Under the pieces are notes generated by a model. The model saw nothing but the letters and a program-made list of their open reading frames with translations, did no database searches and was not told the origin of the DNA. Positions 4,731 through 40,225 of a stretch of 40,225 bases of DNA are shown here, piece by piece. Source of the DNA: a virus; UHGV virus genome UHGV-0210683; one strand, 5' to 3'. The translations under genes were made by a program, and so were the position numbers. Numbering within the stretch: position 1 is the stretch's first letter; each line of letters begins with the position of its first letter.

Positions 4731-5314
4731 ATAGCTTTATCAAACTCCCCAACGATACTCTTGCGCCTGCAAATCCGGCAGCAAGGGATTATCTGCATTC
4801 AAAAGTTAAGTGCGGTGATGTGCTGTCAGCAGACTTCAAAAAGGCACGTAACCCACGATTTCACCGCAAATATTTCGCACTCCTGAACCTCGGTTATGAA
4901 TATTGGGAACCGGTCGGCGGCACCATTTCGCCGGAAGAAAAAGAACTGGTTCGCGGGTATGTGAAATTCCTCGCTTATTACACGGACAATGACGATGCAC
5001 TGCAGTCAGCAGCTGACGCCTATCTTGATGATGTAGCACAAAAGCGCGCGCAGAATATTACTGCGACAAAATCTTTTGACGCTTTCCGATCCTGGGCCAT
5101 TGAACAATCCGGCCAGTACGACACCTACGAAATGCCTGACGGCAGCCTGCGCCGTGTCGCTAAATCAATCAGCTTTGCCAAAATGGATGACCTGCAATTT
5201 GGCGAACTCTATAAATCCACGCTTGATGTGCTGTGGAACTTCATTCTGTACCGCAATTTTTCCACGCAACAGGCCGCTGAGAACGCGGCAGCACAGTTAT
5301 TAGATTTTACCTGA
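4721..5314 (+). CDS. DUF1367-family phage protein
   Basis: RNPRFHRKYFALLNLGYEYWEP and KSISFAKMDD.QF..LY motifs; typical position upstream of Q. Confidence 0.8.
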   Translation: MAQHSFIKLPNDTLAPANPAARDYLHSKVKCGDVLSADFKKARNPRFHRKYFALLNLGYEYWEPVGGTISPEEKELVRGYVKFLAYYTDNDDALQSAADAYLDDVAQKRAQNITATKSFDAFRSWAIEQSGQYDTYEMPDGSLRRVAKSISFAKMDDLQFGELYKSTLDVLWNFILYRNFSTQQAAENAAAQLLDFT

Positions 5315-5326
5315 GAGGCAAGACCA

Positions 5327-5638
5327 ATGACCAAATCAAAGACCAAAGCAGAACAGCAATGGCTGTCGGATGTGGCCGAACTCGGCTGTATCTGCTGCCG
5401 TAACATGGGGTACGGGGCATCCCGTGCAGAACTGCATCATGTGAGAAACGGGCAGGGTATGGGACAAAGGGCGGATCATTATTCCGTACTCCCTTTATGT
5501 CCGCAGCACCACTGGGCATGTTACGAAACGGGATTCCATGCAGCCCCTGCAACATGGCAGCAGATCCACGGCAGCGAACGTGAATTACTGGAGCAGGTAA
5601 TACAGGAAGTCAGGGAGCTGCGAGCATGCCGAGTATGA
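5327..5638 (+). CDS. Ref-like (recombination enhancement) HNH/Zn-finger nuclease
   Basis: GCICC...AELHH...G.G.RA....VLPLCPQHH pattern. Confidence 0.75.
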   Translation: MTKSKTKAEQQWLSDVAELGCICCRNMGYGASRAELHHVRNGQGMGQRADHYSVLPLCPQHHWACYETGFHAAPATWQQIHGSERELLEQVIQEVRELRACRV

Positions 5639-11480: not shown

Positions 11481-12992
11481 ATGTGGCCGTTCAGAAAGCG
11501 GAAAACAGCAGAAATTGCCGCACCTAAGCGGTCAGCGTTCTCAACGCATTTATATTCAGCACTGGCAGCCGAAACAGGATTTCAGGGGCTGGCCTTGCCG
11601 CAACCCACCATGCAGGGCGTGGCGATGGACAGTATCGACGGCACTGTACCGGCATTCAAAGGCGGTCAGGTATACGGCGTTCCTGAGTCACAGGCTGCGT
11701 GGTATGCCTCGCAGATGTTCATCGGCAACAATATGTGTGCGGTGATCGCCAAACACTGGCTGGTTGATAAAGCGTGCAGTATGCCAGCCCGTGACGCTGT
11801 CCGTCAGGGGTATGACCTCGATTGTTCCGGGAGTGACAAAGAAACGCAGAAAAAGCTGCGTAAACTCGATAAAAAATACCGCATCCGGCACCACATGAAA
11901 GAACTGGTACACCTCGGGCGGGTTTACGGTGGCAGGCTGGCACTGTTTGTTGTTGAGACATCCAACCCGAAGGAGTGGTATGAAAACCCTTTTAATCCGG
12001 ATGGCGTGACGAAAGGCATGTACAAAGGGATTAAGCAGATAGATCCGCAGTGGGTCACGCCTGACCTGACGGAAGCTAATTTACAGGACCCGGCCGGACT
12101 TGATTTTTACGACCCAACTTACTGGATTATCGGCGGACGCCGGTATCACAAATCGCACTTCGTGAAGTTCGTGCCGTTCCCGGTACCCGATGTGCTGAAA
12201 CCGACGTATAACTTTTTCGGCGTATCAGTCCCTGAGCGCGTGTACGAGCGAGTATATGCCTCTGAGCGGACCGCGAATGAAGCCCCGCAACTGGCGATGA
12301 CAAAGCGCCTGACGACTATTGGCATGGCGGATGTTGAGGGTGTTGACGCAGCCACCATTCATCAGAACATGATTGAATTTACGGAGATGCGTGATAACTA
12401 CGGTGTGCAAACTGTCGGAGCCGCAGACACTGTTCAGCAGTTCGATACGTCACTCGCGGATCTTGACGCAACCATCATGACGCAGTATCAGCTTGTTGCC
12501 GCTGCCGCAAACGTTCCTGCAACAAAGCTGCTTGGCACAACCCCGAAAGGCTTTAACGCGACCGGTGAGTACGAGGAAGCCAGTTACCGGGAAGAACTTG
12601 AAAGCATCCAGACCAATGACTTAGAAGACCTGTTGCAGCGTCACTACGACATGTTACAGCGCAGCGAGGGTATGGGGACGGACGAGCTTTCAATCACCTG
12701 GTTACCGCTGGACAGTCCTACCGCACTTGAGGATGCAGACATCAAACTCAAGCAGGCACAGACCGATTCAGCGTATGCAGCGGTCGGTGCGGTTGACGGG
12801 CTGGATATCCGTAAAAAGCTGGCGGCAGATAAAGAATCGGCATTTTACGGTATTGACGTGAACGAGGACGATTATGCCCCGGAAAATACGGGTACGAACC
12901 AAACGGGCACGGTGGGCGGCATCCCGTCAGGCAGTTATGAAGGGCAAGCCGCTGCAATATTCGGCAGCAGCCCAAAGCCGTTACCAGCGTGA
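11481..12992 (+). CDS. Portal protein (DUF1073-type)
   Basis: Follows terL; IP.TKLLG..PKGFNATGE-type motif. Confidence 0.85.
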   Translation: MWPFRKRKTAEIAAPKRSAFSTHLYSALAAETGFQGLALPQPTMQGVAMDSIDGTVPAFKGGQVYGVPESQAAWYASQMFIGNNMCAVIAKHWLVDKACSMPARDAVRQGYDLDCSGSDKETQKKLRKLDKKYRIRHHMKELVHLGRVYGGRLALFVVETSNPKEWYENPFNPDGVTKGMYKGIKQIDPQWVTPDLTEANLQDPAGLDFYDPTYWIIGGRRYHKSHFVKFVPFPVPDVLKPTYNFFGVSVPERVYERVYASERTANEAPQLAMTKRLTTIGMADVEGVDAATIHQNMIEFTEMRDNYGVQTVGAADTVQQFDTSLADLDATIMTQYQLVAAAANVPATKLLGTTPKGFNATGEYEEASYREELESIQTNDLEDLLQRHYDMLQRSEGMGTDELSITWLPLDSPTALEDADIKLKQAQTDSAYAAVGAVDGLDIRKKLAADKESAFYGIDVNEDDYAPENTGTNQTGTVGGIPSGSYEGQAAAIFGSSPKPLPA

Positions 12993-13728
12993 CATGTCAC
13001 AACTGATTAAAGGCATGATTGCAGATTACGAAAAGACGTTCAGCAGTCTGCATGAGGATTTTGACGGCGTGACCATGGATGCCAGCTTTGCCAGCCAGAC
13101 CAAAATCTGGCTGAACCGGCTTAAACGCAAGTGGGATAAGATTTTTAACAGTAAGGCCGCAGAGATGGCGGATAAGTTCACCTCGCAGGTGGACATGAAC
13201 GCACAGCGCAGTCTGGACGATTCACTGAAACAACTCTCCGGCGGTATTACGATAAAAACCCCGGCCATGCCCGAAGCCCTGAAAGACAAAATGATTGCCG
13301 CAACGGCAGAAAACGTATCCCTGATCAAATCCATTCCGCAGCAGTTTCATTCCCGTATCGAGGGCGCAGCGTTGCGTTCGGTCAGTCAGACCGGCAGCGG
13401 CAGTAAAACTCTGCTGGATGAAATACGGGATATCGGCGGGGTGACAGAGAAACGGGCTAATTTTATTGCCGTTGACCAGACCCGCAAAATTACCACGGCG
13501 GCTAACTATGAGCGGATGAAGTCTGCCGGGATCCGCAAAGCAATATGGCATCACTCGGCGGGCAGTGCGGAACCCAGGGAATTACACCTTGAGCTTGAAG
13601 GCGAAATCATTGAGTTAGATAACCCGCCGGTCATTGATAAGAAGACCGGTGAACGCGGATTCCCCGGTCAGTTACCGGGATGCAACTGCTTCTTGACACC
13701 TGTTATCGACTTTGGTGAGGAGACATGA
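12874..13728 (+). CDS. Minor head (Mu gpF-like) morphogenesis protein
   Basis: RA.FIA.DQT.K, W.HS...PR..H, PGQLPGCNC motifs. Confidence 0.85.
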   Translation: MPRKIRVRTKRARWAASRQAVMKGKPLQYSAAAQSRYQRDMSQLIKGMIADYEKTFSSLHEDFDGVTMDASFASQTKIWLNRLKRKWDKIFNSKAAEMADKFTSQVDMNAQRSLDDSLKQLSGGITIKTPAMPEALKDKMIAATAENVSLIKSIPQQFHSRIEGAALRSVSQTGSGSKTLLDEIRDIGGVTEKRANFIAVDQTRKITTAANYERMKSAGIRKAIWHHSAGSAEPRELHLELEGEIIELDNPPVIDKKTGERGFPGQLPGCNCFLTPVIDFGEET

Positions 13729-29859: not shown

Positions 29860-29915
29860 ATTTAAAATCCCTCGGCCGCAAGGCTGTGCGGGTTCAAGTC
29901 CCGCTCTGGGCACCA
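29860..29915 (+). other. attP core: 3' half of tRNA-Leu(UAA) (leuZ-like); not an intact tRNA
   Basis: ATTTAAAATCCCTCGGCCGCAAGGCTGTGCGGGTTCAAGTCCCGCTCTGGGCACCA comprises anticodon loop, variable arm, T arm and CCA. The 5' half is absent. Adjacent to the integrase. Confidence 0.9.
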
Positions 29916-31066: not shown

Positions 31067-31285
31067 TTACATAGCCCCGAAGTCAGGTTCTTCTGATACC
31101 GGTAATGTCTGCCGTTTAGCCAGCGGGCTATTAAAATGCGCCCAGGTTGTTTTTGGATATCCGTCCGGCCGCTTTATAAAAAAGATACCGGCACGCTCCA
31201 GGGCTTCGCACTGTTTTGACGGGAATTGATAGCCGGTCAGTTCTATCATTTCGTCCGGGGTAATTACGTCACTCTCGTTTTTCAT
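31067..31285 (-). CDS. Excisionase (DUF4224-type)
   Basis: IT.DE..ELTGY..PSKQC..L...GIFF..RPDG.P; directly upstream of int. Confidence 0.8.
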   Translation of the reverse strand: MKNESDVITPDEMIELTGYQFPSKQCEALERAGIFFIKRPDGYPKTTWAHFNSPLAKRQTLPVSEEPDFGAM

Positions 31286-31448
31286 TTTGGTCTTGCCTCA
31301 TCATCAATAAAATAAGAAGGTCAGCCGTATCGCATGAGCGTTTAATATCTGCCGGAGTGCATGATCTGTTTTTTACACTCGCAGCCAGGCGGCCTAATTT
31401 AATATCAAAGTCGGTCAGTAATTGTTGTCCTGGTTGCCACGGTTCCAT
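31269..31448 (-). CDS. Small hypothetical protein (59 aa), not in the ORF track
   Basis: MEPWQPGQQLLTDFDIKLGRLAASV...; GGGG RBS; overlaps the xis start. Confidence 0.55.
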   Translation of the reverse strand: MEPWQPGQQLLTDFDIKLGRLAASVKNRSCTPADIKRSCDTADLLILLMMRQDQNEKRE

Positions 31449-31518
31449 GATGTTTTCCCCTGTAATGGTATTGGCATCATGGTAATCACCGTGGCGGAAT
31501 AAAACTGATTATGCTTAA

Positions 31519-31707
31519 TCAACTTTTTGTCTGAGAAAAATCGGCCGAGATAATTTCATCAATCAGATAGCACTCTGAAAAAATACCCTTCACGGTCAGT
31601 GTTTCTTTATCCATCAGACAATTTTGCTCATCCGGATAAACGTAGCCGTAGGGCTGATATTCGCAGCTGGTGGCAGAGCAAATCAGCATGAATAATCCGT
31701 ATATCAT
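31519..31707 (-). CDS. Small Cys-containing protein (DUF1482/YebW-like)
   Basis: Hydrophobic N-terminus, C....C, VYPDEQNCL. Confidence 0.6.
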   Translation of the reverse strand: MIYGLFMLICSATSCEYQPYGYVYPDEQNCLMDKETLTVKGIFSECYLIDEIISADFSQTKS

Positions 31708-31871
31708 TTGCTTTCATCCTTCTGCTGCGGCTCGTTACGGGCCTCAATTTTCACCTGTGGAGGCAGGTCGTAATACACATCACACCGGCGGTCTGTATGG
31801 ATGTAGCCGTGACTGCCGTCAGGGAACGTGAGCTTTACCGGCCGGTCTTTGTAGTGTTGGTGTTTTAGCAT
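31704..31871 (-). CDS. 55-aa CsrA-like (carbon storage regulator fold) protein, not in the ORF track
   Basis: MLKHQHYKDRPVKLTFPDGSHGYIHTDRRCDVYYDLPPQVKIEARNE: ML start, alternating beta pattern and a D-x-P-x-x-V-x-I end resembling CsrA (NAPKEVSV). ATGA coupling to the next gene. Confidence 0.55.
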   Translation of the reverse strand: MLKHQHYKDRPVKLTFPDGSHGYIHTDRRCDVYYDLPPQVKIEARNEPQQKDESK

Positions 31872-31901
31872 TGGTCTGCCTTATCGTGACATGTCACGCT
31901 G

Positions 31902-31927
31902 AAACAAAGTGCCCGGTTGCCGGGCAC
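31902..31927 (-). terminator. Terminator within the pL operon after Gp157
   Basis: GTGCCCGG-CAA-CCGGGCAC-TTTGTTT on the minus strand. Confidence 0.6.
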
Positions 31928-31936
31928 CATGGGTAA

Positions 31937-32434
31937 TTACCGGACCATCAGTGAACGTTCACCAATTTCAATATGAGCACCGGGAACTTCAATACCATTT
32001 TCCAGCGCTTCTTTGATGGCTTTTTTATCCGGTGACACAATGGTTTGTACATCAACGAGTTCGTTAGGAAGCAGGGATTCATCATCAATGACAATTGACG
32101 CCCGGCCTTTCACTGCAGTGAATGTGTTTTTCACTGTTTTCAGTTTGTCCTGGCCAGATGCCAGTAAGCAGGTCAGTGCATATTTTTTCAGATCCTTGGC
32201 CTGACGCTTAAATGACTTTTCACGATCCGCCAGGCGTTTGGCTTCTTCACCCAGAGTATTTGCCTGCCCTTCAAGGTTACGGACGTGGATCATAATCGCG
32301 TCCAGTTTATCGCCGAGTGCGCCCTCGATACCTTCCAGGGTGTCGGCTATTTCTTCCGGGGTGAATTCACCGGTCTCTACCAGTCGTTGCAGCTTTTCAT
32401 AGTCTGCGGCTAATGCAATTGCGGTTGTGCTCAT
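31937..32434 (-). CDS. Siphovirus Gp157-family protein
   Basis: DTLE.IEG...DK, E.KRL..R, PDKKAIKEAL..G.EVPGA motifs. Confidence 0.85.
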   Translation of the reverse strand: MSTTAIALAADYEKLQRLVETGEFTPEEIADTLEGIEGALGDKLDAIMIHVRNLEGQANTLGEEAKRLADREKSFKRQAKDLKKYALTCLLASGQDKLKTVKNTFTAVKGRASIVIDDESLLPNELVDVQTIVSPDKKAIKEALENGIEVPGAHIEIGERSLMVR

Positions 32435-34428
32435 TGGTCTGCCTCTTGTTTTTCAGTCAGTGCGGTTAAACATTCATCTTCAATAGCTTTCAGGCGGCGC
32501 AGGCGGCCTTCGAGGTATTTCTGATATTCTTTATCGCCACGGGATTTTGCATTATTAACATGTACGGAAATCTCCCGTGACAAGGTGGATGCAATACCAC
32601 GCAGCTCATTGGTCGTGACTGCCGTCCGCATGGTTTCCGTGTTGCGTTTGAATTTATCGTCCAGTTCCTCGCGGAGACGGACGATATCATCGGCGTTATC
32701 GCTGGCCGCCTTAATTTCAAACTCCATTTTATTTTTGATGAGATATTCAGGGTTATCGTGCATACCCATGAACACATCAGAAGAGAACCCGAGCATTGAC
32801 AGTGCTTTTTTAATCGCGTCTGTCAGTGATTTTTTTATGACCTCACTATCAACTTTTATGCCGTATTGGGTCTGATAGCGGTATGGTGTCGCGCCGTAGC
32901 TTTCAAAATAACAGCACTTGCCATCTTTACTGCGGTACCAAAACTGGATTTTTATTGAATGATTTTGCTCGCAGAACAGAGAACCGTCTGCGTCACGCAG
33001 GTAACGCAGAGCAACCTGTTTGTTGTTTTCCAGAACAGGTTCAGTCAGCGGTTTGCCGTCTAGGAATTTTTCTTCAACCACCTCATAGCCCCAACCTTCA
33101 CCGATCGGTCCGAAAATTTCGGTAGCACGCATAAACATGTAGTTACTGTTAATGCTGGTACCCTGAAATCCCGCGCCCTCTAAAGGCTTGGTAAAGCGTG
33201 GATCTGTGCGCTGTACCTGCTTCCAGATACTCAGATTGTCCGTGTCTGCCAGAACCTCGGCAATCACTTCGGCGCGGCTGCGGAAGTCATCAGTAGCTGG
33301 TTCCTCGGCATGAGCCGGTTCCGGTGTTTGGGCTATGGTAGTCGGTTCATCGTTGGCCGCTACTTCCGGAGCTGGTTTCTCTGCCGGTTTATCTGCTTTT
33401 TTAGTACGTGTGCGCTTGGTCTTTTCCTGCTTTGCTGCTACGGGTGGTTTATCTTCCGTAATATCCGGACCGGACCGGCCTGTTTCCTGGTCATGACTGC
33501 TTTCTGCCGGCGTTATGCCGATACGGTCAGCCACAAACTGTTTACGGGCTGCCGCATCGCTTATCAGGTCAGGTAATTCTTTTCCTTCACGTACGACAGC
33601 AAAGACTGTTTCACGCGGGATCTGCAATGCGGTCGGGATAATACGGAACTCAGTAGACCAGCGCCGCCAGCTTTCATCTTCATCACTGATCAGCTTTTTT
33701 GCAGCGGTAAGTTTGCTTGGCTGAATTTCCCATGGGTCAAAATTACCGGGAAGAAGGGCGAGGGCTATTTCCTGATCCAGTGTCGCGTAATTATGTTCAA
33801 AATTACGTTGCTTTTGCTCCGGGACAGGGAGTTGCCCGGTGGCCGGTTCTGCAGGGAACAGGTATTCTTCTGCCAGCTTCTGTGCTTCTGCTTCGGTAAT
33901 ACCATCCTGAGCTTTTTCCAGAACAGTATTTACCAGCGCTTCTAAATCCTGTTCATTCAGCAGGGAAACCGTGCGTGTGGCCGCGATACCTTTTGCAATA
34001 TTCCGGATCTGCGGGTATTCATCACTTTCGTGAACAAAATCGACCGCTTTGCGGTACTCATTGCGGGTAAATTGTGTTTTTTCATACAGCATGATTGCCG
34101 CAATACGAACGACTGGCGCCGTTTTTGCAAACACTACCATTTCTTCTTCACGTTTCTGCCAGTCGGTACCGTTGAACTCGTACTCTTTGGCAAAATGTTC
34201 ATCAAAACTATCGCCGGCCGGTGCTGGTTTGCCTGCCTGAGCTTCGCAGATTATTGGTGCCGACACATCAAACTTTCCTGTATTTTCAGGATAAGTTTCC
34301 TCCAGCATCACGGTGGCCATTGCTCTGGCCATCTTCTCGGAATTGGCGGAAATCGTGATTGCAACAGTCACAGCACCGTCTTTAAGTGCCGCATCTATGG
34401 GATTAAATGCACAGATATAATTGGTCAT
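32431..34428 (-). CDS. Large recombination protein: RecE-N-terminal-like region plus C-terminal Rad52/Sak-like annealing domain
   Basis: C-terminal TDPRFTK, ATEIFGPIGEGWGY, KKSLTDAIKKALSMLGFSSDVFMG; central TLDQEIALALLPG. Confidence 0.7.
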   Translation of the reverse strand: MTNYICAFNPIDAALKDGAVTVAITISANSEKMARAMATVMLEETYPENTGKFDVSAPIICEAQAGKPAPAGDSFDEHFAKEYEFNGTDWQKREEEMVVFAKTAPVVRIAAIMLYEKTQFTRNEYRKAVDFVHESDEYPQIRNIAKGIAATRTVSLLNEQDLEALVNTVLEKAQDGITEAEAQKLAEEYLFPAEPATGQLPVPEQKQRNFEHNYATLDQEIALALLPGNFDPWEIQPSKLTAAKKLISDEDESWRRWSTEFRIIPTALQIPRETVFAVVREGKELPDLISDAAARKQFVADRIGITPAESSHDQETGRSGPDITEDKPPVAAKQEKTKRTRTKKADKPAEKPAPEVAANDEPTTIAQTPEPAHAEEPATDDFRSRAEVIAEVLADTDNLSIWKQVQRTDPRFTKPLEGAGFQGTSINSNYMFMRATEIFGPIGEGWGYEVVEEKFLDGKPLTEPVLENNKQVALRYLRDADGSLFCEQNHSIKIQFWYRSKDGKCCYFESYGATPYRYQTQYGIKVDSEVIKKSLTDAIKKALSMLGFSSDVFMGMHDNPEYLIKNKMEFEIKAASDNADDIVRLREELDDKFKRNTETMRTAVTTNELRGIASTLSREISVHVNNAKSRGDKEYQKYLEGRLRRLKAIEDECLTALTEKQEADQ

Positions 34429-34443
34429 TGGTCTTGCCTCTGG

Positions 34444-34815
34444 TCAGTAAGGTAATGCTTCGTCGTCTTTGGAGATAACTTCACCCTCCAGGCATAGCAG
34501 TGCCTGTATCTGGTCTTCCAGTAATCTGGTTTTGGCAGTTGCATCTGCAAGGATCTGATTTTGCTCTGCCCGTAAACTGTTAATTTCGGCCTGAACTAAA
34601 TCAGATTTACTGACTGAAGGGTCGGGTAATTCAAACTGGTGTTCGGCAACGGGGAAGCCCATACCGTCAGTCGCTTTGAATTTGTGGGTGAATACTGAAT
34701 ACGCGATACTTCCGTCAAACCGTTTTTGTGCATGGACGTAAAGCGTGACTTTGAGGAGGTTAGGTTGTGCTTTCATAGCAACTCCTTTAAAATGATGTTT
34801 CCAATGATTCGTCAT
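34444..34815 (-). CDS. Hypothetical protein, first pL gene (two in-frame starts: 34815 and 34776)
   Basis: ATG 34815 is preceded by GAGGCAAGACCA and ATG 34776 by AAGGAG; C-terminal coiled coil. Confidence 0.7.
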   Translation of the reverse strand: MTNHWKHHFKGVAMKAQPNLLKVTLYVHAQKRFDGSIAYSVFTHKFKATDGMGFPVAEHQFELPDPSVSKSDLVQAEINSLRAEQNQILADATAKTRLLEDQIQALLCLEGEVISKDDEALPY

Positions 34816-34886
34816 TGGTCTTGCCTCTTCTGACGGTTGGTCCCGTCAGTGGAACTCCGGATTAGCTTTGGTCGGCGACTCCGGGT

Positions 34887-34914
34887 AAAAGAGCCCACTT
34901 CGGTGGGTTTTTTT
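34887..34914. terminator. Bidirectional terminator in the pL leader (tL1-like)
   Basis: AAAAGAGCCCAC-TTCG-GTGGGTTTTTTT. Confidence 0.75.
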
Positions 34915-35054
34915 ACGTCTGAAATAAGGTGCCCGTCTTTCCGGGCTGTCAGGTCGCCTTGCCTCTTCTGCCATCTTCGTGGCGTTATTTGTTTCCTGGT
35001 GCTGCCGTAAAACTGTGAACGTTTATCCTGAATACCCGCTGTGGGGTTTTGATG
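34887..35054 (-). ncRNA. Candidate ~165-nt pL leader sRNA
   Basis: Bounded by pL and the terminator. Contains a 19-nt antisense to 4685-4703 and a boxB-like GCCCG-GAAAGA-CGGGC hairpin (34931-34946). Confidence 0.5.
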
Positions 35055-35060
35055 ACATAA

Positions 35061-35102
35061 ATATTAGCAATGCTATTTTTATTATGCAATAGCAATGCTA
35101 AT
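35061..35102 (-). promoter_or_regulatory. pL promoter with operators OL1/OL2
   Basis: TTGCAT-17 bp-TAATAT on the minus strand; palindromes ATTAGCAATGCTATT (35063-35077) and AATAGCAATGCTAAT (35088-35102). Confidence 0.8.
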
Positions 35103-35112
35103 TATTTAAGGC

Positions 35113-35139
35113 AAAAAAAACGCCACGATAATAGCGGCG
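35113..35139 (-). terminator. cI terminator
   Basis: CGCCGC-loop-GTGGCG-TTTTTTTT on the minus strand. Confidence 0.7.
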
Positions 35140-35160
35140 CTCATTAAGGGGTTGATTTAC

Positions 35161-35913
35161 TTATGCAAAGTCAATCATTCTAATGGGGAGGGATTTTATA
35201 ACTTTTCCGATTATGCGCAGATCATGGGTTTCATTTTCTTCAATGTAAAACGTTTCGTAAGCTTCATTATCAGATTTCACTGCGAGCCTGCGACCTTTTA
35301 CGCGCTGTAATCTTTTAATAAATAATGAATTTTCAAAGGTAAAAACATAAATACCATCACTGTCAAAAAAAGAGTTATGGGTGTCAACAAATACAACATC
35401 TTTTGGGTTGATAGCTGGCGACATGCTATCCCCACTGATGTTGATCATCTCTATACCTTTCAAGTTTCTTCTCCCAAAGAGTTCAAAAACTTTTTCTGGT
35501 GAAAACTCTATTGATTTTATCGTGTCAGGGAAATCAGCATTAATAAAGCCGCCGGGACCAGCTTTAGCATATACATCCATAAGCCTTAATGTATTGATCT
35601 CATTGCTTGTGATGGCATTTGTCTGATGGGCTGAATTAGTGTCGGATGTAGTTCTTATGTGTTCAAGCAAAGGACCTATTTCCGGATTTATTTCCTCAGG
35701 TTGAACCTGAAGCAAAGCAGAAAATTTCAATACGGTATCCGTGTTTAGTGCTGTTCTTGCATTTAAATACTGGCTGACCGCCGCTTGTGTATTAAACCCA
35801 AGAGCATCCGCAGCTTTTTCCTGAGTTAAGCCGAGGGATTCACGCTTTGCTTCCCAGATTGCTCGCAATCTTTGCGCTGCGCTTTTGTCTGTATCGGATA
35901 TTTTTCTGTTCAT
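35161..35913 (-). CDS. cI: CI-like repressor (HTH plus S24 autopeptidase)
   Basis: LTQEKAADALGFNTQAAVSQYLN HTH, AG cleavage site, GDSM.P serine and IKRL lysine. Confidence 0.93.
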   Translation of the reverse strand: MNRKISDTDKSAAQRLRAIWEAKRESLGLTQEKAADALGFNTQAAVSQYLNARTALNTDTVLKFSALLQVQPEEINPEIGPLLEHIRTTSDTNSAHQTNAITSNEINTLRLMDVYAKAGPGGFINADFPDTIKSIEFSPEKVFELFGRRNLKGIEMINISGDSMSPAINPKDVVFVDTHNSFFDSDGIYVFTFENSLFIKRLQRVKGRRLAVKSDNEAYETFYIEENETHDLRIIGKVIKSLPIRMIDFA

Positions 35914-35990
35914 ACCATGCAGTTTATTTGTGTTGCTAATACTTTTCCAATAGCATTGCTATTGATCGTTTAAATTAGCGGTGCTAATAT
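35914..35990. promoter_or_regulatory. OR region: pR, pRM and operators OR1-3
   Basis: pR TTGATC-17-TAATAT (35962-35990). pRM -10 TAAACT lies 7 nt before the cI ATG. Operators at 35974-35988, 35949-35963 and a degenerate one at 35926-35940 (consensus AWTAGCNNTGCTAWT). Confidence 0.8.
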
Positions 35991-36018
35991 CAGGTAACCA
36001 AACTCACAGGAGGTTCTT

Positions 36019-36267
36019 ATGAAATTAGGTGATTACCTGAAAAAACACGGAATCAGTCAATCTGAGTTCGCAAAAATTGTCGGCGTCACGCAGGGCTATG
36101 TCAGCCAGGTGGTCGCGGGTAATTATTTTTTAAAAGGCAAAAAAGCCATTGATTGGGCTTCAAAAACCCAATGGTTTGTGACTCCACATGATCTGAATCC
36201 GGATGATTATCCAAATCCTCATGATGGAATTCCTACTGCTGAATCAGTATTACAGCAAGCCAGTTAA
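36019..36267 (+). CDS. cro: Cro-like (YdaS-family) regulator
   Basis: SQSEFAKIVGVTQGYVSQ HTH, VTPHDLNPDDYPNP.DG.P tail; divergent from cI. Confidence 0.85.
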   Translation: MKLGDYLKKHGISQSEFAKIVGVTQGYVSQVVAGNYFLKGKKAIDWASKTQWFVTPHDLNPDDYPNPHDGIPTAESVLQQAS

Positions 36268-36271
36268 AAAA

Positions 36272-36289
36272 CTGATTATTCATAATCAA
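36272..36289. promoter_or_regulatory. YdaT/CII-type binding site (pRE-like region)
   Basis: CTGATT-N6-AATCAA, one mismatch to the TTGATT-N6-AATCAA inverted repeat described for YdaT; lies between cro and ydaT. Confidence 0.6.
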
Positions 36290-36310
36290 TTTCGCGACAG
36301 GAGACGCAAG

Positions 36311-36763
36311 ATGATGAATAACAATAAAATAATTAAGGATGAGATTGAATTATGGGCGGCGGAAAAAGGACAGGAGCATGTCGCAATCGAAATTAGCAGG
36401 GCGCATTTTTTAATACTGTGTGGTGATCAACCGTCACGCCTGTACCCGATAGAAGACGGGGCCGGTAACGCAGACTGGAAAGCAATTAATAACAACAGGC
36501 AGCAAATTTTCCGTTGGTTGCGCGGTAATTCTCCGGCAGCAGACAGAAAATTCAGTGAGCTGATCCCGGCAATCAAAATTGCATTACCTGCTGACCGGTT
36601 GGCGCGGGTTAACGGGGATGAGTCGGTTAATTATCTGGCTTCCCTGGCAATCAAAGAATTTGCTGCAGCAATCAGCGAAACACTTTTAGGCAGTCGTGAC
36701 ATGTCACAGTGCATATCAAAAGCAGTAACCGCATTAAATGCGATGCGCATGACCAGCGCATGA
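36311..36763 (+). CDS. YdaT-family CII-like regulator
   Basis: WAAE.GQE.VA.EI, NNRQQIFRWL, L.PAI..ALP motifs; AGGAG RBS. Confidence 0.8.
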   Translation: MMNNNKIIKDEIELWAAEKGQEHVAIEISRAHFLILCGDQPSRLYPIEDGAGNADWKAINNNRQQIFRWLRGNSPAADRKFSELIPAIKIALPADRLARVNGDESVNYLASLAIKEFAAAISETLLGSRDMSQCISKAVTALNAMRMTSA

Positions 36764-36780
36764 GAAAGAGGCAAAGACCA

Positions 36781-37005
36781 ATGCTGAATACAACCGAAAA
36801 AATCACCTACCGCAACGGATTTATGCATAACGGCGACCCGACGGACATTGAAACAATACGGCCAATTTTTGAGGGACGACGTGCTGCGGCTCTCAGTGTC
36901 TGGGAACAGTACGAGCAGATGAAAGCAAAATTACTGCAGCGCAATCTGACCCCTGAACAGTATCAGAACGCATGCCGCGATATTGCCAGAGCACTGGGGG
37001 TGTGA
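36781..37005 (+). CDS. Hypothetical protein
   Basis: GAGGCAAAGACCA-ATG start; LTPEQYQ.ACR.IA.ALGV. Confidence 0.7.
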   Translation: MLNTTEKITYRNGFMHNGDPTDIETIRPIFEGRRAAALSVWEQYEQMKAKLLQRNLTPEQYQNACRDIARALGV

Positions 37006-37006
37006 C

Positions 37007-37858
37007 GTGAGTAATAAAATTCAGGGCTACGTATGGGATGCCTGTGCCGTTTCCGGTGTGAAAGGCACAAAACTGATGATTATGGTTCGCCTGGCTGATT
37101 TCTCCAGTGATGAAGGGATCAGCTATCCGAGCGTAGAAACACTGTCCCGACAGATTGGGGCAGGCGTCAGCACTATCCGCGATGCATGCAGTGAGCTTGA
37201 AAAGGATGGCTGGCTGACAAAAAAACAGCGCCGGAACGGTAACCGTAACGCATCGAATTTATATTTTCTCAATGTCGATAAGCTGGAAACTATCGCGTTG
37301 CAGGAAATCGCAAAGCTGAAAAAACAGCGTGAAAATAATGCAATTTCTCACCCTCCAGTTTCTGACGGTTCAGAATCCGACCGGTCAGAAAACAGTAATT
37401 CCGGGCGTTTTGACCCTCCAGATTCTGGCGTTAAAGGGGGTTTTCACCCTCCAGAATCTGGAGGCGATCCATCAGTAAATTCAAAACATGATCCATCAGT
37501 AAATTCAAAAGAGGATCCGAAGCCTGCGACGCAGAAAAAATCCACGGTGAAATTTGACCCGTTGTCAGTCCGTCCGGAAAACGTCAGCGAACCTGTCTGG
37601 CAGGATTGGGTGAAATTCCGGAAGGAGATTAAAAAACCACTGACGGAAACCAGCTGCCGGCAGATTGGCAAAAAGCTGGCCGGGCATCCGGATCCTGATT
37701 CTGTGCTGTGTGACTCGATTGCCAACGGCTGGCAGGGAATATTCCCGGAACGCACCACAGGTCGGAAACCTGCTAAGCCGAGCACACACTCCGGATTCAG
37801 CGATAAAAACTACGAGAGCCGCTCTGCGGCATGGGTGAACGGGGGTAAGCATGTCTGA
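37007..37858 (+). CDS. Phage replication initiator (wHTH; O-like)
   Basis: LAD.S.DEG.SYPS.ETL, SNLY.L, internal iterons, C-terminal W.DW..FRK...SIANGWQG.F. Confidence 0.85.
   Translation: MSNKIQGYVWDACAVSGVKGTKLMIMVRLADFSSDEGISYPSVETLSRQIGAGVSTIRDACSELEKDGWLTKKQRRNGNRNASNLYFLNVDKLETIALQEIAKLKKQRENNAISHPPVSDGSESDRSENSNSGRFDPPDSGVKGGFHPPESGGDPSVNSKHDPSVNSKEDPKPATQKKSTVKFDPLSVRPENVSEPVWQDWVKFRKEIKKPLTETSCRQIGKKLAGHPDPDSVLCDSIANGWQGIFPERTTGRKPAKPSTHSGFSDKNYESRSAAWVNGGKHV
37350..37510. repeat. Replication origin iterons
   Basis: ACCCTCCAG(W)(W)TCTG at 37350, 37413 and 37446; 21-bp GATCCATCAGTAAATTCAAAA at 37466 and 37490. Confidence 0.8.
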
Positions 37859-38423
37859 CGAACTGAACGTGAATATCCCGCCTCGCTTTGTTGCAGCGAC
37901 ATTTGAGACGTATCACCCGGCGAATCAGGATGCGGAAAGCAATCTGAAAATCTGCCGCGAGTATGCCGACACATGGCTGTCCCGTAAAACCGCCGGAGAG
38001 GCACTTATTTTGTGCGGAACACCAGGAACCGGGAAAACACACCTCGCAGTGTCAATCGCCCGTCAGGTTGCAACTGAGGCGAAGGAATCGGTATTTATCA
38101 CCACAGCGGCGCGTATTATCCGGGCTTTTCGCCGTACATGGGCTGGCGATGCGGAATACAGCGAGCTCGACGTACTGGAAAAATACTGCGAGCCAGGTCT
38201 GCTGATTATCGACGAAATCGGGGTGCAGTACGGAACTGACTCAGAGCGCAATATTCTGTTTGAAGTGATTAACGACCGTTATGAGGACATGCTGCCGACC
38301 ATCATGATCAGCAACCTGCCGCTGAACGAACTGGCACCGCTGTTGGGTGAACGAGTTATTGACCGCATGCTGGAAGGTGGCGCAGTGCTGTCGTTCAACT
38401 GGCCAAGCTACCGGAGTAATTGA
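37851..38423 (+). CDS. DnaC/IstB-like helicase loader ATPase
   Basis: GTPGTGKTHLA, LLIIDEIG, ISNL, RVIDRM. Confidence 0.9.
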   Translation: MSDELNVNIPPRFVAATFETYHPANQDAESNLKICREYADTWLSRKTAGEALILCGTPGTGKTHLAVSIARQVATEAKESVFITTAARIIRAFRRTWAGDAEYSELDVLEKYCEPGLLIIDEIGVQYGTDSERNILFEVINDRYEDMLPTIMISNLPLNELAPLLGERVIDRMLEGGAVLSFNWPSYRSN

Positions 38424-38425
38424 TT

Positions 38426-39796
38426 ATGTTCAGTGAGCAGGAATTAGAAGCCGCTGTCATTGGTGGTTTACTGGCCGGTGGTGCCACTCAGGATGCCTAT
38501 GACGTTCTGGCAACACTGCCTGATGATGCTTTCAGTGTCGGGTACTTTTCCAGGGTGTACCGGGAAATAAAAAAACAGGCACTGACGAGTGCAATTATCG
38601 ATCCGGTATTTATCGCGGACGCACTCGGGGGAAATGGTGATTTTGCTCATATCATGGAGCTCACCAGAAAAACCATCTCATACGCAAATCTGAAAGGGTA
38701 TGCCGAAAAAGTCAGGAACTATGCGGCTGTTCGTAAAATTACAGCGCTGATAAATAAATTTCAGAAAGAAATTACTGATGCTGCCACTCATGACCAGGCC
38801 GAAAGCGTAATTCAGAAGTTCAGCAGCGAGTTCACCCTGATCACCAGCGAGAAAGAAAGCCTGGTACCGGTTCACCTCAACGAACTGATTGACGGCTATG
38901 TTGATGTGCTGGAGAAGCGGAACCGTGGCGAGGGCAGCGGCATGATGATCCGGACCGGTATCGAAGCACTGGACGATAAAATCGGTGGTTTTAACCCTAC
39001 GGACCTGATTTTTATCGGCGGCCGGCCGGGCATGGGTAAAACTGAACTGGCACTCACGATGATGGAAAAAATGACAACCGCCGGTGACTCTGTGCTGATG
39101 TTCTCCATGGAAATGGCGAACATGCAGATCGCCGAGCGTATGATTGCCGTGGCTGCGCAGCTGCCGGTTTCCAAAATGCGCAACTGTGATTTGGACGACG
39201 AGGGCTGGGGGCGGATCAGTTCAGCAATCGCACATCTGATTGACCGGGACATTCACATTATAGATGCCAGCAATCTGACCATTGATCAGATATGCGCCAT
39301 CAGTGAGCGACATAAACGCAAATATCCGGCCACAAAAGGCATTTTCATCGACTATCTCGGGCTGATTAAAAAGCCTAAGGCGGAGCGTAACGACCTGGCT
39401 ATTGCTGCGATATCGGCCGGTATGAAAGGCTTGGCTAAAAGTATTCACACACCGGTTGTGGCTCTGAGTCAGTTATCCCGTGACGTGGATAAACGACCGC
39501 TGAACCAGCGCCGTCCGGTCGCTGCAGATCTGCGTGACTCCGGTAGTCTGGAACAGGATGCAGATTTTATTTTCCTCACCTACCGGGACGTGGTTTATAA
39601 CCCGAACAGCCCGGCAAAAAACTATGCGGAGATCATCATCGAGAAAAACCGGCACGGAAAAACCGGAACTGTGTATCAGGAATTTAAAAACGGCCACTAT
39701 CTGCCAACCGACCAGATTTCAGCAGCAGAAGTAAGTCGTATGCAGCAACAGGCGGAGGTACCTAAAAGACGCCGCTACGCCGATAAAGCATTTTAA
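38426..39796 (+). CDS. DnaB-like replicative helicase
   Basis: GRPGMGKT, FSMEM, IDYLGL, LSQLSR, DLRDSGSLEQDAD, KNRHG. Confidence 0.95.
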   Translation: MFSEQELEAAVIGGLLAGGATQDAYDVLATLPDDAFSVGYFSRVYREIKKQALTSAIIDPVFIADALGGNGDFAHIMELTRKTISYANLKGYAEKVRNYAAVRKITALINKFQKEITDAATHDQAESVIQKFSSEFTLITSEKESLVPVHLNELIDGYVDVLEKRNRGEGSGMMIRTGIEALDDKIGGFNPTDLIFIGGRPGMGKTELALTMMEKMTTAGDSVLMFSMEMANMQIAERMIAVAAQLPVSKMRNCDLDDEGWGRISSAIAHLIDRDIHIIDASNLTIDQICAISERHKRKYPATKGIFIDYLGLIKKPKAERNDLAIAAISAGMKGLAKSIHTPVVALSQLSRDVDKRPLNQRRPVAADLRDSGSLEQDADFIFLTYRDVVYNPNSPAKNYAEIIIEKNRHGKTGTVYQEFKNGHYLPTDQISAAEVSRMQQQAEVPKRRRYADKAF

Positions 39797-39816
39797 GACC
39801 AACAGAGGCAAAGACC

Positions 39817-39993
39817 ATGATAATCAAAGACCCTGTTACGTGCGAATCTCTCGTGCGTGATAACTATCCCCGCATGCCGGATGATGGCTGTGACCATACC
39901 AACCGTCACTTAGACCGGCTGCATGCCGCGCGCCGTGCCCGGAAAAAAATCCCGTATCAGTCTGCCCCTGAACCAAAGAAACAGGGGGTGTGA
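39817..39993 (+). CDS. Small hypothetical protein (58 aa), not in the ORF track
   Basis: GAGGCAAAGACC-ATG start; MIIKDPVTCESLVRDNYPRMPDDG... Confidence 0.6.
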   Translation: MIIKDPVTCESLVRDNYPRMPDDGCDHTNRHLDRLHAARRARKKIPYQSAPEPKKQGV

Positions 39994-39995
39994 GC

Positions 39996-40225
39996 ATGTC
40001 CGGACAATCAAATTATTTACCTGCAGGTCTGCCTCACAATCGCGCACTGTGGCCTGCTGAGTATCAGGAAAAAGAGCAGCTTGATTTGGCTGCCAGCCGC
40101 CTGATTAAACAGCTCAGAATGCAGAAAATACACAGAACGACTGTACTGGTGGCTATCGAAAAAACACCGGCGGATCAGCAAATGTTTTTCCGGGAGCGCC
40201 TGAACTACTGGCAGGGGGTAATTAA
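39996..40225 (+). CDS. Hypothetical protein (77 aa if circular; stop at positions 2-4)
   Basis: Open to the window end; ...ATT AA|G TGA when joined to position 1, giving a GTGA overlap with the first gene. Confidence 0.65.
   Translation, partial: MSGQSNYLPAGLPHNRALWPAEYQEKEQLDLAASRLIKQLRMQKIHRTTVLVAIEKTPADQQMFFRERLNYWQGVI

Follow-up and report, generated by a model that had tools for sequence, protein, structure and literature searches.

Why do genes in both early operons of a lambdoid phage begin with nearly the same ribosome-binding sequence? The question arises in UHGV virus genome UHGV-0210683, a stretch of 40,225 nucleotides (nt) that was analysed whole and is called the window below. 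It has int–xis and recombination genes on the left and cI, cro, cII-like and replication genes on the right; the rest comprises a nin region, Q, lysis genes and virion genes. An earlier note on this DNA had described eight near-identical elements, here called tags, running from the Shine-Dalgarno sequence to the ATG of non-structural genes, and had proposed that one RNA-binding protein or small RNA co-regulates their translation. Our comparison of sequences supports an RNA-level regulon that would span both early operons. The tag is probably the shared target of a predicted antisense RNA, related to IsrB of the Salmonella prophages Gifsy-1 and Gifsy-2, that would block translation of seven early genes in the lysogen and be titrated by pL transcripts on induction.

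Tags at the starts of early genes

The search confirmed all eight elements, each on the coding strand and each ending in ATG. The pattern AGGCA{1,3}GACCA{1,4}TG, derived from the eight sites themselves and hence post hoc, occurs 8 times in the window and on average 0.005 times (maximum 1) in 200 dinucleotide shuffles; a looser tag core has 9 occurrences against 0.26, the ninth (40034, − strand) being without an ATG. Seven tags stand before genes distant from the RNA gene described below (the trans starts), namely those for a Ref-like nuclease, an excisionase, a protein of 55 amino acids (aa), Gp157, a 665-aa protein in the RecE position and two small pR genes. The eighth, at 34813-34828, lies inside the predicted 115-nt antisense RNA gene (34800-34914, +) and is called the cis copy. 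Sequences flanking the tags differ from site to site. As the earlier note had observed, structural genes are free of the element (0 structural-gene starts tagged in the window), and a scan of the starts in the window found no tag at cI, cro, int or Q. Its remark that extra GACCA copies cluster at some tagged starts also holds: they occur at 4 of the 7 trans starts (ref, the recE-like gene, 36781 and 39817) and near 0 of 19 other, untagged starts listed, the twentieth, the ATG at 34776, having only the cis copy 44 nt upstream.

The tag is confined to phage genes as far as the host sample goes. Five whole genomes of Proteus, Providencia and Xenorhabdus (4-5 megabases each), picked for carrying such prophages, hold 34 exact tags, against 0 for the reversed control. 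Of these, 33 are clustered tightly at the prophage locus, with a single cluster in each genome, and the remaining one is at the start of a ref-like phage gene. An equal frequency at host genes, which the earlier note had named as evidence against its proposal, was thus not seen: no tag lay outside phage genes in these five genomes.

Only for the cis copy do we depart from the earlier assignment, which made it the start of the first pL gene. It is probably no gene start, because the alignment to PHROG 2479 begins at residue 17 of the 123-aa frame that follows it, because a second ATG at 34776 has its own AAGGAG Shine-Dalgarno sequence, and because the length of the frame varies among 33 distinct relatives (4 codons in 15, 123 in 4, other lengths in 13 and no ATG in 1). 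The cis copy is retained without a gene, or without an AUG (Serratia, phage ZF40).

A predicted antisense RNA carrying the complement of the tag

From its 5′ end, the predicted RNA has hairpin 1, an open toehold, two further hairpins (2 and 3), each with a UUGGUC loop, and a terminator. Its fold on the + strand (34800-34914) has a z-score of −5.6; UUCG forms two of the loops, and the tail is U7. The seed, which is the complement of the tag, matches the starts of ref and the recE-like gene exactly over 18 nt, and the toehold at 34819-34825 (UCUUGCC) is predicted to be single-stranded, with an unpaired probability of about 1.0. We placed the 5′ end from the position of the −10 box, 7 nt upstream of the predicted start. 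With its weak −35 box, the putative promoter is absent from a consensus promoter scan of the window. A −10-like box stands at the same place in all 23 sequences listed, ZF40 has TATAAT, and a TAGAAT box precedes the longer mapped 5′ end of IsrB at promoter spacing, which supports the promoter call for the RNA predicted here. The consensus scan reports the terminator only in the − strand reading; on the + strand the stem runs into the U tail.

The structure is conserved. In an alignment of 20 homologues, both partners vary in 9 of the 37 pairs and pairing is kept in 97.3% of 735 cells, a level that 0 of 500 shuffles attain. Our own count on the antisense strand gave 113 G·U against 5 A·C cells, a ratio biased because the structure was predicted on that strand; without the terminator, the antisense strand is the more stable in 20 of the 23 sequences listed. 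Among Morganellaceae, changes in hairpin 1 are confined to the 5′ arm and the seed arm is constant. A blastn search of 34700-35060 against phages and E. coli returned only short pieces, mostly of the terminator.

The pL leader holds a non-coding partial tag copy with a 13-nt exact complement in the RNA (net −13.5 kcal/mol), and lineage-matched leader copies occur in many, not all, relatives. A conserved hairpin with a GAAAGA loop, which we take to be boxB-like, also lies in the leader (34931-34946, −); its Serratia version holds the core of the Serratia tag, a possible origin of the tag.

The complementarity predicted between RNA and tags spans the Shine-Dalgarno sequence and AUG of distant mRNAs, as expected of a trans-acting antisense RNA that represses translation. 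Among 55 trans starts ordered by simple duplex energy, the seven tagged ones take ranks 1-6 and 8, with cII at rank 7; when the full RNA and opening costs are taken into account, 6 of the 7 are within the top 7 of 52. Pairing of the seed with the untagged cII-like start (36290-36325) scores −27.8 kcal/mol, similar to the weaker tags; with the full RNA this start is not among the top 14.

Covariation of seed and tag across related phages

A GTDB scan for the IsrB hairpin followed by the terminator gave 35 loci. Near an ATG, 22 of them have one or more exact complements, 13 nt or longer, to the 5′ part of their own RNA, and the reversed-seed control gave 0 sites in all 35. The matches, 13-22 nt long, are specific to lineages. 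The tag is GAGGCAAGACC in Morganellaceae and GAGGAAAGACC in Serratia, with a 22-nt match in one case, and within Serratia the RNA and the tags of S. rubidaea have both shifted to CTAGG, a joint switch. Prophages of Sodalis, Phytobacter and Pluralibacter share the tag GAGTTTTGACCAA, often 15-38 nt before the AUG (15-23 nt in Sodalis). When 11 RNAs were set against 11 loci, the matrix was block-diagonal, with three seed families and two stray single matches.

The RNA was found by pattern in 76 of 93 locus stretches (many overlapping) with tags on both operons. A covariance model, run on 15 of the other 17, finds it in 14, and in the single miss the RNA lies elsewhere on the same contig. The isolated temperate Pectobacterium phage ZF40, which features in anti-CRISPR work (in the part of PMC6765145 consulted), has the same layout as the window: the RNA (NC_019522, 5237-5363), a cis copy without AUG, and tags at 6 of the 26 starts read, those of xis and the recE-like gene among them.

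Relation to IsrB

The RNA region has no Rfam match at the gathering cut-off. The isrB model (RF01386) aligns over its full length (model positions 1-87) at 31.9 bits (E 7e-4; gathering cut-off 35 bits), and our own covariance model of the RNA finds Gifsy IsrB reciprocally at 34 bits (E 3e-6). By these scores, the RNA at 34800-34914 is a relative, not a scored member, of RF01386. IsrB-1 and IsrB-2 are northern-verified RNAs of 88 and 94 nt from Gifsy-2 and Gifsy-1, described as antisense beside sbcA/recE (PMC2330248), and Rfam positions IsrB antisense just before recE in both Gifsy phage records. The consulted parts of later reports describe IsrB-1 as expressed in uninduced Salmonella strain 4/74 (10.1101/787010), give it few reads in an Hfq pull-down (PMC2515195), and call IsrB ProQ-associated with a 'likely' role in lysogeny (PMC5391140). 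No target of IsrB and no account of the tag was found in the literature searched, whose scope stopped short of the supplements of RIL-seq and ProQ studies, where IsrB chimeras are possible.

Like the two Gifsy RNAs, the RNA lies antisense in the early-left operon ahead of recE and has its own −10 box, and the UUUGGUCGG hairpin followed by the UUCG terminator is conserved in both. It differs in that one small gene sits between it and the recE-like gene, in its length (about 115 nt), in an extra UUGGUC hairpin and a different 5′ seed, and in the tagged starts, of which there are seven here and none in Gifsy. In Gifsy-1, IsrJ (L032 33406-33480) carries CGACCAAA, complementary to the IsrB hairpin loop, and may be an RNA–RNA partner.

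The 55-aa protein

We find the sequence pattern of the tagged 55-aa protein reminiscent of CsrA. Monomer models have five short strands, and in two ESM Atlas neighbours of the protein, at 0.83 and 0.86, Pfam CsrA is assigned to 14% and 59% of the members, respectively, which we treat as leads only. It has no Pfam match, PF02599 included; HHalign against CsrA gave 0.6% on a shallow profile of 4 sequences, CsrA stood at an E of about 85 in an iterated hidden Markov model search, and five structure searches gave no clear match with the monomer models, which may miss an intertwined dimer. Its matches to Bap repeats among Protein Data Bank sequences were set aside as a likely chance strand pattern.

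All 15 GTDB loci with a homologue of this protein (15/15) have trans sites, and its gene start is tagged in the window and in ZF40. Five loci (L038, L046, L050, L062 and L068) have cognate 13-22-nt sites and no detectable homologue, and the genes of the Serratia homologues are untagged. A protein regulator therefore seems unneeded, and the 55-aa protein may have an accessory role in a system of tag and RNA that does not appear to require it. Of the two regulators named in the earlier note, the small RNA fits, with a candidate that overlaps one site and covaries with the tags, and the protein fits less well. A second, divergent csrA occurs in a Xenorhabdus genome (L074 1501-1680).

Proposed mechanism and alternative explanations

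From the tags, their complementarity to the RNA, the conserved structure and the lineage covariation we infer that the RNA is expressed, pairs with the early messages and represses them, with the timing and titration set out here. By pairing across both the Shine-Dalgarno sequence and the start codon, the RNA would block translation of the seven early genes. Pairing would begin at the exposed UCUUGCC toehold, perhaps assisted by the UUGGUC loops through neighbouring GACCA copies, and hairpin 1 would then open to give a duplex of 11-18 base pairs (bp). In the lysogen the RNA would silence leaky excision, recombination and other early messages; since its putative promoter is its own and lies opposite pL, it would be made while CI represses pL and pR. 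Induction would produce pL transcripts that bear both the full complement and the leader decoy, and these would titrate the RNA.

Several observations weigh against this reading. Thirteen of the 35 GTDB loci have no site near an ATG (one locus is 837 bp long, and two look like chance matches). The starts of Gifsy-1 and Gifsy-2 are untagged, and on them the real IsrB seed pairs no better than chance, 71 of 100 shuffled seeds equalling it; the regulon thus does not extend to every IsrB relative. Ranking with the full RNA places the untagged dnaB start 4th of 52 and leaves the 55-aa start out of the top 14. Without the terminator, the strand preference in the window is small (−33.6 vs −31.2). Among 78 distinct sites, tag variants comprise 9 wobble-keeping and 6 wobble-breaking transitions, giving no clear G·U bias. 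Two loci (L017 and L021) keep the recE tag with no RNA match, and a third (L158, 13118-13737) has a Gifsy-type, non-cognate IsrB yet a module of 55-aa homologue and xis with a tag-like xis start; we read L158 as a mosaic prophage whose tag and RNA seed are mismatched. A 115-nt contig of RNA run X4 covers 34805-34913 at depth 85; upstream contigs are equally deep and the strand is not given, so that we do not count it as expression. Finally, covariation alone would also arise from recombination that homogenises all copies.

That last point underlies one rival explanation, close to the earlier note's alternative of microhomology joints, in which the tags represent joints of recombination, or else a ribosome-binding cassette copied by gene conversion, and are complementary to the RNA only because its gene happens to overlap one copy. 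It would predict the covariation of all copies within a lineage, and it agrees with a Gifsy IsrB that works without tags, with the lack of a clear G·U bias and with a recombinase encoded by the phage. The cis copy, kept without gene or AUG and located at the exposed toehold, argues against homogenisation without being proof. Nor does the idea explain why hairpin 1 of Morganellaceae changes on the 5′ arm with a fixed seed arm, why Sodalis sites stand 15-23 nt before the AUG, or why the flanks differ and all tags lie on the coding strand at starts; we judge it improbable, the least credible of the alternatives weighed here and unlikely to be the main reason for the tags. Slightly better placed, and still improbable, is an operator for a phage RNA-binding protein, most plausibly the CsrA-like 55-aa protein acting on GACCA, with the hairpins as sense-strand sites or the RNA as a sponge. 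The trans sites in every GTDB locus with a homologue, the tagged start of its gene, the five-strand models and the CsrA leads among ESM Atlas neighbours would suit it, as would tandem GACCA copies for a dimer. It sits poorly with the five loci that have cognate sites and no detectable homologue, with the untagged Serratia homologues, with the HHalign result on its shallow profile, with a structure that favours the antisense strand, and with some gp157 starts that lose GACC yet keep complementarity. Matches of up to 22 nt that track the RNA sequence are moreover longer than a CsrA-type site.

A further alternative accepts pairing of RNA and tags and changes its timing: the RNA would act in lytic growth or in the lysis–lysogeny decision, for example from a CII-activated promoter, and not in the established lysogen. 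In its favour are the weak −35 box of the RNA, which the start of the first pL gene overlaps, the lack of tags at cI, cro, int and Q, and the tie of the lambda aQ antisense RNA to the lysogenic response described in the consulted part of PMC12197685. On the other side, IsrB is expressed in uninduced Salmonella lysogens (PMC2330248, 10.1101/787010, in the parts consulted), and CI of this phage has a peptidase-type length and adjoins the RNA gene. We think this timing unlikely, if the least unlikely of the three rivals, and keep silencing in the lysogen as the preferred reading.

Comparison with other antisense systems

P22 sar is an antisense RNA that lowers the expression of a lytic or decision gene. 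It, OOP and aQ are, like the RNA predicted here, antisense RNAs of lambdoid phages. Each of them acts in cis on one gene, whereas the predicted targets here are seven distant genes and the overlapped copy is probably no gene start. For OOP and aQ, lowered expression of a single lytic or decision gene is described in the part of PMC12197685 consulted. The P4 CI RNA pairs with two sites, causes termination and confers immunity (PMC4825925, PMC3632133, as far as consulted). It and C4 of P1/P7 resemble the RNA at 34800-34914 as small structured phage RNAs with short complementary sites, and pairing at these sites gives immunity in both P4 and P1/P7; P4 CI differs in being processed from the same strand as seqA/seqC and in terminating one operon, and the predicted RNA here differs from both in being encoded antisense, opposite pL, with sites at many start codons of two operons. 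The Rfam models C4 (RF01695) and c4-a1b1 have no match in the window, and both match Gifsy-1 as a positive control. CsrA/RsmA with CsrB-type sponges likewise repeats a short motif at ribosome-binding sites and hairpin loops, and rsmX of Rfam matches the RNA weakly (22 bits against a cut-off of 56). Here, in contrast, the motif of the loops is the complement of that in the mRNA tags, and RNA and tag match over a long stretch that is particular to each lineage. PMC12803456 and the Pas preprint deal, in the parts consulted, with other RNAs.

As judged from its sequence, the system is real and conserved, and probably a form of phage antisense control with new features relative to known ones. The phage antisense RNAs compared here act on one gene or one leader; if the proposal is correct, one RNA whose sites at seven start codons are nearly perfect would govern a post-transcriptional regulon for lysogeny across both early operons, which would explain how leaky excisionase and recombination messages are silenced. 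It would also suggest a function for the IsrB family, which was described in 2008 and for which the literature searched here gave no target. The lineage-specific seeds suggest RNA immunity groups. More speculatively, and in our view possible rather than probable, these phages may form a lambdoid prophage family with an RNA master repressor, in which an IsrB-type RNA silences the early genes of both operons through a lineage-specific address in each ribosome-binding site, as a second, RNA-coded immunity specificity beside CI. Induction would then flip an RNA–RNA switch via the pL-leader decoy, possibly helped by a CsrA-derived 55-aa protein on the fixed UUGGUC loops. Natural seed and tag variants could serve as orthogonal pairs of RNA and ribosome-binding site for synthetic regulation.

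Table 1. Coordinates of the tags, the predicted RNA and associated features in the window
Feature	Coordinates	Strand	Basis or remark
Tag at ref-like nuclease gene (5327-5638; PF16786)	5314..5329	+	sequence
Tag at excisionase gene (31067-31285; phrog_1266)	31283..31299	-	overlaps 3′ end of a 59-aa open reading frame
Gene of 55-aa five-stranded protein, predicted target	31704..31871	-	CsrA likeness a lead only
Tag at 55-aa gene (31704-31871), weakest tag	31869..31882	-	sequence and pairing energy
Tag at Gp157 / Gam-like gene (31937-32434)	32432..32446	-	sequence and profile match
Tag at 665-aa RecE-position recombination gene (32431-34428; phrog_2489)	34426..34441	-	
First pL gene, likely true extent	34444..34776	-	own Shine-Dalgarno sequence, untagged
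Putative promoter of the RNA: weak -35 (34765-34770), 17 nt, -10 TAAAAT (34788-34793)	34765..34793	+	
Predicted IsrB-like antisense small RNA gene, about 115 nt	34800..34914	+	fold, Rfam near-match, covariation
Seed, complement of the tag	34812..34829	+	its minus strand is the 'first pL gene' site
UUGGUC loop of hairpin 2	34837..34842	+	loop nearly fixed; stem covaries (both partners altered in 5/8 pairs)
UUGGUC loop of hairpin 3, portion common to Gifsy IsrB	34868..34873	+	
Intrinsic terminator, UUCG loop, U7	34884..34914	+	may also act weakly on the - strand
Non-coding partial tag copy in pL leader	34952..34970	-	candidate decoy or attenuation site
Tag at 74-aa gene before replication genes (36781-37005; phrog_2465)	36767..36783	+	
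Tag at 58-aa gene after dnaB (39817-39993; phrog_4183)	39804..39819	+	

Further observations in the window

The C-terminal half of the 665-aa protein (32431-34428, −) resembles proteins annotated as Rad52-like annealing proteins in Pseudomonas phages, so that it may be a fusion and not a plain exonuclease. The perfect palindrome GTGACATGTCAC occurs three times in the window (12989-13000, 31886-31897 and 36696-36707; chance mean 0.07), two of the copies shortly before tagged genes. It is present in 183 of 410 loci, many of them overlapping, and three times in ZF40. We consider it a candidate DNA site for a dimeric protein and find it reminiscent of matS with a different spacer. Next to int, 29860-29915 looks by eye like the 3′ half of a tRNA gene and is attP-like; ARAGORN found no whole tRNA there. 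A theta-like open reading frame (39996-40225, then 1-6) runs off the end of the window, and its stop would fall at 2-4, overlapping an ATG at 4; the window therefore looks like a complete circular genome.

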